A stretch of 62,792 nt of DNA, counting the filler, from Asterionella formosa (Eukaryota): the NCBI GenBank assembly GCA_002256025.1. It is 5 parts of 5 records of this genome, joined end to end, with 100 filler letters (N's around TTAATTAATTAA, not from the genome) between each part and the next. Parts side by side here need not be neighbours in the genome. Positions count along the whole stretch, not along the records: positions 20,115 to 40,066 come from NKIB01003478.1; 4 more parts are not named here. One strand, given 5' to 3'. Both the position numbers and the translations under genes were made by a program. Under the pieces are notes generated by a model. That model made no database searches, was not told the DNA's origin, and saw nothing but the letters and a program-made list of their open reading frames with translations. Shown piece by piece: positions 29,930 to 30,700 of this stretch (the first letter of the stretch is position 1; the number at the start of each line of letters is the position of its first letter).

Positions 29930-30700
29930 GCACCACTGCGACGAAGTAGATATGATGTCATGACATAAATCCCATGTGAAGCCAAGAAGAGTAATCCAAC
30001 AACCACATGCATTCATTTAAAGACTAGTCGCCACTGGTGTCATCAATGAGCACATTTTGCTTCAGATTGGGCATGATGGTTGATTGTTGACTGTGCGTCT
30101 CAAAGCTGTATTTCCGCCCTCACATTTTAGAAAACAAACCAAAATCGATGTATATTTCAACAGATTGGTAAATACTAGATATATTTTAATCAAATCTGTA
30201 GAGAACATAAAATGATTTCCTTAAGTAGACCCCTTACCAATTTTGCCAATCCCAGGGCTGGAAAACTGAGGAGCAATTCGCGTTAATTGTATTGCCAAAA
30301 TGCGAACATATGAAACATTCTAAACATATTTTTACCATGGGCAATACTGGACCCATTGCAAATTTTGATGTGAAGATAGGAAATATACAATATATTTTTT
30401 ATATGATGGGCTATAGCAAGCTAAAATTGACAGTGACACTCAATGAGTGGGCAGTAGGTAAGTGAATGGCTTGATGATAGCTAGGTTGTGAATTGCCTCA
30501 ACAATACCCTTTTTGGTGGCTACATGCTGTTGTATACATATGTACTTGACTGGGATGGCACTCAAAGGGTGACCTTCTTGCAGTGCCAGGGGCGCCACTC
30601 ATACAGTGAACCTTCTCACACCACCCAGTCTTGAACACATGTATACTTGCAGGCGTGAGACCACCTTGAGCATGTTTTGCCTTCGCAAACCTCATCATGT
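29930..30700 (-). mobile_element. Hairpin-ended repeat, copy C (inverted, more diverged; may extend to ~28577)
   Basis: Its reverse complement matches 38376-39050 (for example ccttaagtagaccccttaccaa..tcccagggctggaaaac and cgccactggtgtcatc). It has the longest fold-back, at ~30494-30686. Confidence 0.8.

Follow-up and report, generated by a model that had tools for sequence, protein, structure and literature searches.

A long hairpin studded with CGAG blocks at one end of a highly repeated non-coding element of Asterionella formosa, possibly a transposon of rolling-circle type

The stretch analysed here (the window, 62,792 nucleotides of assembly GCA_002256025.1 of the alga Asterionella formosa) carries three copies, A, B and C, of a non-coding repeat whose end module is a long imperfect palindrome, the fold-back. 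The window is made up of five separate pieces (20014, 19952, 1238, 19950 and 1238 nt), joined by linkers (44 N, TTAATTAATTAA, 44 N) at 20015-20114, 40067-40166, 41405-41504 and 61455-61554, and no feature can be read across the linkers from one piece to the next. All three fold-back copies lie in the second piece (20115-40066, record NKIB01003478.1), which is eukaryotic nuclear DNA with genes for a protein kinase, tubulin cofactor A and a RadA-like protein; contigs from RNA libraries are spliced across its introns of 69-86 nt (26470-26555, 86 nt; 31570-31638, 69 nt; 32248-32322, 75 nt; all in run X17). These RNA-library contigs give no strand, ends or level and are possibly derived from DNA. 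In a language-model look-up the RadA-like protein falls nearest to a cluster in which Bacillariophyta is the most frequent known phylum, a lead only.

Copy A (23457-25471, plus strand) is the only copy with both ends. Its fold-back (23457-23585) is followed by a left inverted repeat (23586-23606), a non-coding body (23607-25450) and, in the opposite orientation at the very end of the element, a right inverted repeat (25451-25471); each repeat has two mismatches to the 21-nt pattern ATTCCCGCTNNAGCTATCGTC. The left inner arm and the tip of the fold-back of copy A are deleted, level 1 reads CAAG/CAAG and level 2 is intact. Copy B, also on the plus strand, runs from 38376 to the contig end at 40066 and consists of a fold-back (38376-38522), a left 21-nt inverted repeat without mismatches to ATTCCCGCTNNAGCTATCGTC (38523-38543) and a body (38544-40066) that reaches the contig end, the linker starting at 40067. 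Its two outer CGAG/CGAG levels are intact, the right inner arm has been lost and the tip unit runs in the complementary CTCG orientation. Copy C lies on the minus strand and has kept both inner arms and the tip in a CpG-decayed fold-back at 30492-30687, so that the imperfect palindrome claimed at 30494..30686 by an earlier, sequence-only reading is real and differs from that claim by a few positions. Only the head part of its body is present (29984-30491), the likeness to copies A and B stopping near 29984, and its left inverted repeat is degenerate (about 30473-30493). Copies A and B are 82% identical over 1709 nt, and the body of copy C has 72% identity over 605 nt in an alignment with the other copies. 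The tail of another copy, with its inverted repeat on the minus strand at 41586-41606, forms the start of another contig (41505-41606, plus strand). Copy A is flanked on each side by an older, diverged tail fragment of its own family, both on the plus strand: 23157-23456 abuts it on the left (nhmmer E = 1e-52) and 25472-25592 on the right (E = 3e-23). An nhmmer search of the window found no further copies of the element.

The ends of the element are well defined. The 21-nt pattern ATTCCCGCTNNAGCTATCGTC occurs four times in the window; 100 shuffles gave no match. All three copies start abruptly at TGCTGAAGG (TGCGAAGG in copy C), and their left flanks are unrelated. The left inverted repeat is located 129-199 nt inside the element end, and the fold-back fills exactly that interval; the right inverted repeat closes the element, and three tails stop at GGGAAT before they diverge. 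The order of the unit is 5'-hairpin (98-199 nt), 21-nt inverted repeat, non-coding body of about 1.85 kb, 21-nt inverted repeat-3', and since the hairpin stands outside the left repeat, one inverted repeat is terminal and the other subterminal. The element begins and ends as TGCTG...GGGAAT (ATTCCC...TTCAGCA when read in reverse), and a GGCAAT near the left end agrees with the terminal GGGAAT at five of six positions. The palindrome stands between two nearly identical direct repeats, GAAGGCAAT and GAGGCAAT, which do not vary from copy to copy and therefore record at most one event; no free-standing fold-back was seen in the copies examined. GGCAA/TTGCC motifs recur in fold-back and body alike. 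No structure comparable to the fold-back occurs at the tail end (z = -1.6 and -1.4), just a small 8-bp hairpin about 115 nt inside. The element has no coding capacity: none of the 79 reading frames of at least 50 amino acids in and around it reached the Pfam cut-off, apart from an unrelated truncated frame with a DDE_Tnp_4 (PIF/Harbinger-type) domain (40168-40986, minus strand, E = 5e-9), which lies on a separate 1238-nt piece and has no sequence in common with the fold-back family.

A scan of metagenomes with a pattern outside the fold-back recovered four relatives, L016, L017, L018 and L019. L016 and L019 are identical in the tip, hence not independent. L017 has a 98-nt short form of the fold-back, in L019 one site of the right arm (level 2) has become CTCG, which complements the left arm exactly, and L018 keeps only a rearranged remnant, as judged by eye. 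Counting that remnant, a fold-back precedes all seven body heads (A, B, C and L016-L019). The left part of L017 (396-1008, minus strand) contains phage-like reading frames ending in ...YLKWIAEGNT that share words encoded by GCTGAAGGCAATAC. This contig, which has low coverage, is probably chimeric, because a shared word lies just where the phage-like part meets the algal fold-back, and its left flank was accordingly dropped as an independent insertion site. Candidate relatives on viral contigs were also discarded, as the 15 matches to a 17-mer were only 17-24 nt long and are attributable to chance; two further patterns scanned on viral contigs gave no match, and neither did the prokaryote genomes scanned.

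The element family is highly repeated. Repetition was judged from counts of distinct contigs; summed DNA depth is no copy number. In run X1 the family-majority letter was found on 38 distinct contigs at fold-back position 30629 and on 120 at body position 39005, and the genes neighbouring the repeat were found on single contigs each. In L016 the tail of one unit is joined head-to-tail to the hairpin of the next, GGGAAT being followed directly by TGCTGAAGG, and a contig of run X13 links 25574 to 38376 by way of a diverged tail repeat. Run X13 also contains a strain that differs by about 3.6%. Copy A, the sole copy with both ends, has no target-site duplication.

The hairpin of L016 appears to be the intact, consensus-like form of the family to which the other copies point. 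In its 199 nt it contains ten CGAG and no CTCG, where the background of the window predicts 0.5 per 199 nt (Poisson P ~2e-10). Its minimum-energy fold is a single unbranched hairpin of 74 pairs. In each of the five 2x2 internal loops CGAG is opposed by CGAG; these loops are spaced 11-17 bp apart with Watson-Crick stems between them, and TGAAG faces TGAG at the base. The top strand, with the hairpin at its 5' end, has nine G.T pairs, the complementary strand two. With DNA parameters the top strand folds at -50.1 kcal/mol (z -6.6) and the bottom strand at -44.1 kcal/mol (z -5.4); with RNA parameters the values are -112.3 kcal/mol (z -10.6) and -84.0 kcal/mol (z -6.1). Elsewhere in the window, sites with YGAR facing YGAR amount to the known copies and pairs at chance level.

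The copies in the window depart from this form to different degrees. The loops that had been quoted for copy B were found as described, with CGAG/CGAG at two levels and TGAA facing TGAG at the base. Copy C is a decayed copy: it has no CGAG, its ten former sites now being CAAG (5), TGAG (3), CAAA (1) and CAAC (1), and its CpG observed/expected ratio is 0.36 compared with 1.22 in copy B. A tandem G.A is still possible at only one of its five core levels (TGAG/TGAG), the other four reading CAAG/CAAA, CAAG/CAAC, CAAG/CAAG and TGAG/CAAG. Facing sites decay in concord at four of the five levels, which is not significant (P ~0.3, a hand estimate). With DNA parameters the fold of copy C has z = -2.9 for the minus and -3.2 for the plus strand, so that this copy shows no strand preference. 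The central observation of the sequence-only reading, facing G.A loops with one strand folding better, thus holds, and it is stronger in the consensus-like L016, with its CGAG blocks and G.T wobbles, than in the window copies. The two-armed, T- or Y-shaped tip proposed at the same time did not hold as a feature of the family: in L016 it is worse than the unbranched fold by 10.3 kcal/mol (DNA) and 21 kcal/mol (RNA), and only in the decayed copy C is it the fold of lowest DNA energy.

This anatomy supports the earlier proposal that a mobile element ends in the fold-back. Our tentative interpretation, to which we would give somewhat less than an even chance, is that the family is a non-autonomous, HLE2-like DNA transposon of the rolling-circle (HUH) type with the hairpin as its end signal. 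The layout of the ends fits the Helitron2/Helentron type and suggests Helitron-like, single-stranded movement. An HUH (Rep-type) transposase would mobilise the element in trans through a single-stranded intermediate, and the hairpin would serve as the signal for end recognition or termination, possibly also for priming. The five CGAG/CGAG blocks (C-G, sheared G.A, A.G, G-C), together with the G.T wobbles, would favour the strand that reads 5'-hairpin-body-3', and only this strand would be well stacked; its complement has C.T/T.C and A.C mismatches in their place.

Several results weigh against this interpretation. A RepHel or other Helitron-type domain, or an autonomous partner, was found in none of the 24 + 79 window reading frames scanned. 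The inverted repeats are 21 nt long, compared with 12-16 in HLE2, and the stem-loop is 10-20 times longer than those described. The base T stands at two of the five readable flank positions (hairpin side of A, B and C; tail side of A and of the copy at 41505), which does not bear out the T-T insertion rule of HLE2, and in the canonical HLE2 orientation the weaker hairpin would sit on the transferred strand. In the short forms, folding does not exceed that of shuffles (z -0.98 for the 98 nt of L017, -0.85 for B and -0.55 for A); a short-form joint (23503 to 38477, with CAT between) nevertheless occurs in contigs of all four runs, and the inner hairpin may therefore be dispensable. As to the asymmetry, the DNA energies of the two L016 strands lie just 6 kcal/mol apart, the wobble bias of nine to two is by itself not significant (two-sided P = 0.065), and the shared orientation of the five loop levels, if these are taken as independent, has P = 0.06. 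There are only about four independent fold-back copies for comparison. When copy C is placed on the pairs of L016, 51 are unchanged, 10 are kept by a one-sided change, one is compensatory and 12 are broken. Across six rows the covariation score was 0.035 compared with 0.033 in shuffles, a value reached by 175 of 500 shuffles, and 92.1% of cells were paired compared with 91.4% (reached by 42 of 500). This test has low power, because dead copies under CpG decay would be expected to look so, and it still lends no support. The sequence-only reading had proposed to look for covariation and had named missing compensatory variation and a match to a described terminus as outcomes that would count against it; compensatory variation was not found, and the layout, though neither the sequence nor the G.A pattern, is that of a described terminus type.

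The most direct competitor is a cut-and-paste (DDE) transposon bounded by the inverted repeats, in which the fold-back would be a passenger, a palindromic miniature inverted-repeat transposable element (MITE) or foldback element that once inserted beside the left repeat and has no role in movement. The direct repeats GAAGGCAAT and GAGGCAAT on either side of the palindrome are what a target duplication of 8-9 bp, possibly an old one, would leave; the recurrent GGCAA/TTGCC motifs resemble transposase binding sites; inner parts of the hairpin have been deleted in A, B and L017 and the copy was still kept; and the Harbinger-type DDE_Tnp_4 fragment is present on another piece of the window. However, a DDE transposase could not move sequence outside the inverted repeats, yet the outer boundary of the fold-back is sharp at three unrelated flanks, and all seven body heads have a fold-back in front of them, in L018 as a rearranged remnant. 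The outer end of the fold-back is no inverted copy of the tail, copy A lacks a target duplication, and the 10:0 strand bias of CGAG would be left unexplained. We consider this account unlikely, though one to be reckoned with. Neutral survivorship is less probable again: palindrome arms would be homogenised by hairpin-templated repair, and poorly corrected G.A mismatches (C.T on the opposite strand) would persist without function. The premise of this account is that tandem G.A/C.T mismatches would escape repair. Arm-to-arm copying is real, as the CTCG at the right level-2 site of L019 and the complementary tip unit of copy B attest, and deletions of the palindrome type are frequent, but this process would account neither for the occurrence of one tetranucleotide, CGAG, at ten of ten sites nor for the orientation that all five levels share.

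Selection could also act at the transcript level, the fold-back being an RNA hairpin, for instance a cis-acting RNA of the element or the precursor of a small RNA. Tandem G.A and G.U wobbles are classic marks of RNA pairing, the gap between strands is much larger with RNA parameters (-112.3 compared with -84.0 kcal/mol), and RNA-library contigs hold the fold-back (the short-form joint in X15 and X17; a loose end at 25419 in X17). Those contigs, on the other hand, may come from DNA and give neither strand, ends nor level; no covariation was detected; and it would remain unexplained why the fold-back stands beyond the inverted repeat, where the transposon ends. Rfam gave no match at the gathering threshold in the whole window, none at E up to 1 in L016, L017 and L019, and elsewhere, in copy A, just a chance-level match to MIR172 (E = 0.93). 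The structured-RNA alternative, which had been raised from the outset, gains nothing from these searches, and we hold it to be improbable, by a shade more than neutral survivorship. Very improbable indeed is a parvovirus-like, T-shaped terminal palindrome replicated by a rolling hairpin. The DNA minimum-energy fold of copy C does have a two-armed tip, and the tip unit of copy B is inverted relative to the left unit of copy C, as in flip/flop. The orientation of CGAG in the outer loops relative to the body, however, is the same in all copies, and therefore there is no flip/flop of the whole hairpin. The hairpin is also found at one element end only, its unbranched form is the better one in L016 by the margins given above, and the window encodes no viral genes. 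The earlier proposal of HUH or rolling-hairpin movement is therefore best divided, its rolling-circle part being compatible with the layout and its rolling-hairpin part having left no parvovirus-like signature.

A more far-reaching reading would regard the element as an undescribed eukaryotic lineage of HUH transposons, with a CGAG-studded hairpin of about 200 nt as strand selector and perhaps as terminator or single-strand origin. We think this doubtful, clearly more so than the HLE2-like assignment itself. A strand-selector hairpin of this kind would be the eukaryotic counterpart of attC sites, IS608 hairpins and plasmid single-strand origins. To our knowledge, end recognition and strand choice of eukaryotic rolling-circle transposons have been worked out in detail for one reconstructed bat Helitron only. 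The algal hairpin would carry a built-in strand marker, as sheared G.A pairs on one strand become pyrimidine mismatches on the other, and would offer a direct, testable handle on strand choice. A literature search of incomplete coverage turned up no terminal hairpin of a transposon with G.A or CGAG blocks. The CGAG block, until now a biophysical curiosity of a human promoter, would be put to use by a natural mobile element. If, instead, the fold-back is a palindromic passenger of a cut-and-paste transposon, the finding shrinks to an unusual repeat.

The surroundings of the element show further peculiarities. Many freshwater and algal metagenome runs contain the stretch of the second piece. Around the fold-back copies lie more non-coding, highly repeated stretches (20115-23456 and 28107-29438), found on many distinct contigs in every run; none of their 48 reading frames has a Pfam match, and 28565-28677 is a tandem duplication with a period of 64 nt. 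A second family of short interspersed repeats, about 70-100 nt long and bearing AAAATGACCGCAAC, occurs in both orientations, often beside GGTACC-rich tracts (157-235, 6197-6268, 18885-18956, 28324-28402 and 49817-49895), and looks like a MITE. A single RNA contig of 3.9 kb covers 34388-38290, that is, the RadA-like gene and a reading frame on the opposite strand (37265-38029). Motifs resembling GGTACCTGGTACC cluster at 33590-33700, 33790-33830 and 34205-34225, where many contig joints and loose ends fall, and contigs of three runs skip a 505-nt segment (33700-34206), which suggests an insertion polymorphism or paralogues. In the fourth piece, 46001-50000 is strongly AT-rich (G+C 0.21-0.23) and broken by N runs; N runs other than the linkers are located at 43089-43619, 46485-47319, 48463-49230 and 59638-60232.

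Among known systems, DNA sites that fold on one strand occur in mobile elements and rolling-circle plasmids of prokaryotes, another domain of life, and are mostly smaller. The subterminal hairpins of IS200/IS605 elements, integron attC sites and plasmid single-strand origins are imperfect palindromes in which mismatches make one strand the functional one. We know of none among these three that is built on tandem G.A blocks. The blocks themselves have a precedent in the AUTS2 promoter (Novotny, Plavec and Kocman 2023, PMC10085684): CGAG blocks in single-stranded DNA form thermally stable hairpins with G:C and sheared G:A pairs. The CGAG/CGAG motif, for which a register shift is possible, is the same in both cases; the AUTS2 blocks, however, are consecutive in a short human promoter repeat, whereas the algal blocks are 11-17 bp apart in a transposon end. 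Another paper considered as sheared-pair literature (PMC8469720) was set aside, as it uses 'sheared' in another sense.

With canonical Helitrons (HLE1) the algal element would share a terminal hairpin on an element moved by a one-strand HUH enzyme. In the reconstructed Helraiser a single donor strand is used, the hairpin is the terminator and head-to-tail circles are formed (PMC5876387). HLE1 elements lack inverted repeats; their ends are 5'-TC and 3'-CTRR, a short hairpin stands 10-12 nt before the 3' end, and insertion is of the A-T kind. An assignment to HLE1 was rejected, as the ends of the algal element are TGCTG...GGGAAT without CTRR and none of the HLE1 end motifs is present. Terminal hairpins, at one end or at both, are described as a general trait of Rep transposons (PMC10288648). 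Replitrons (Craig 2023), HUH transposons with a Y1 Rep transposase, resemble the algal element in their algal setting, their abundant non-autonomous copies and a possible hairpin at the right end, and their terminal direct repeats are weakly echoed by GGCAAT/GGGAAT; they differ in having direct rather than inverted repeats and only an 11-bp palindrome (PMC10288648).

The HLE2 type is the nearest in layout. Its inverted repeats are short (12-16 nt), and in its canonical form the stem-loop follows the right repeat (PMC11417382); the HINEs of mites have a 5-10-bp palindrome between the element end and the 3' repeat, which is 38-60 bp away from that end (PMC4067079). HLE2 elements share with the algal element one terminal and one subterminal inverted repeat with a stem-loop between the latter and the element end, junctions of the head-to-tail kind, composite copies that carry extra termini, and non-coding derivatives that far outnumber any autonomous copy; a target duplication is lacking in HLE2 and at copy A. 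The differences are that palindromes of 5-10 bp are replaced by a stem-loop of 98-199 nt with five CGAG/CGAG blocks, repeats of 12-16 nt by repeats of 21 nt, and that T-T insertion is not seen here. No sequence similarity was found to any described terminus that could be compared, so the earlier remark that this is no named transposable-element terminus stands for the sequence and for the G.A pattern and not for the layout. FoHeli1 starts with a GCC-GAA-GGC mini-hairpin (PMC5148889), and the GCT-GAA-GGC at the start of the algal element is a resemblance, not a test. The best match in arrangement is the 'HLE2-reverse' form (FoHeli3-5) together with the Phytophthora proto-Helentron, in which the stem-loop is located upstream of the left repeat, as in the algal element (PMC11417382, PMC5148889); FoHeli3-5 of Fusarium oxysporum combine a 5' hairpin with a 13-16-bp inverted repeat and have no established target (PMC5148889).

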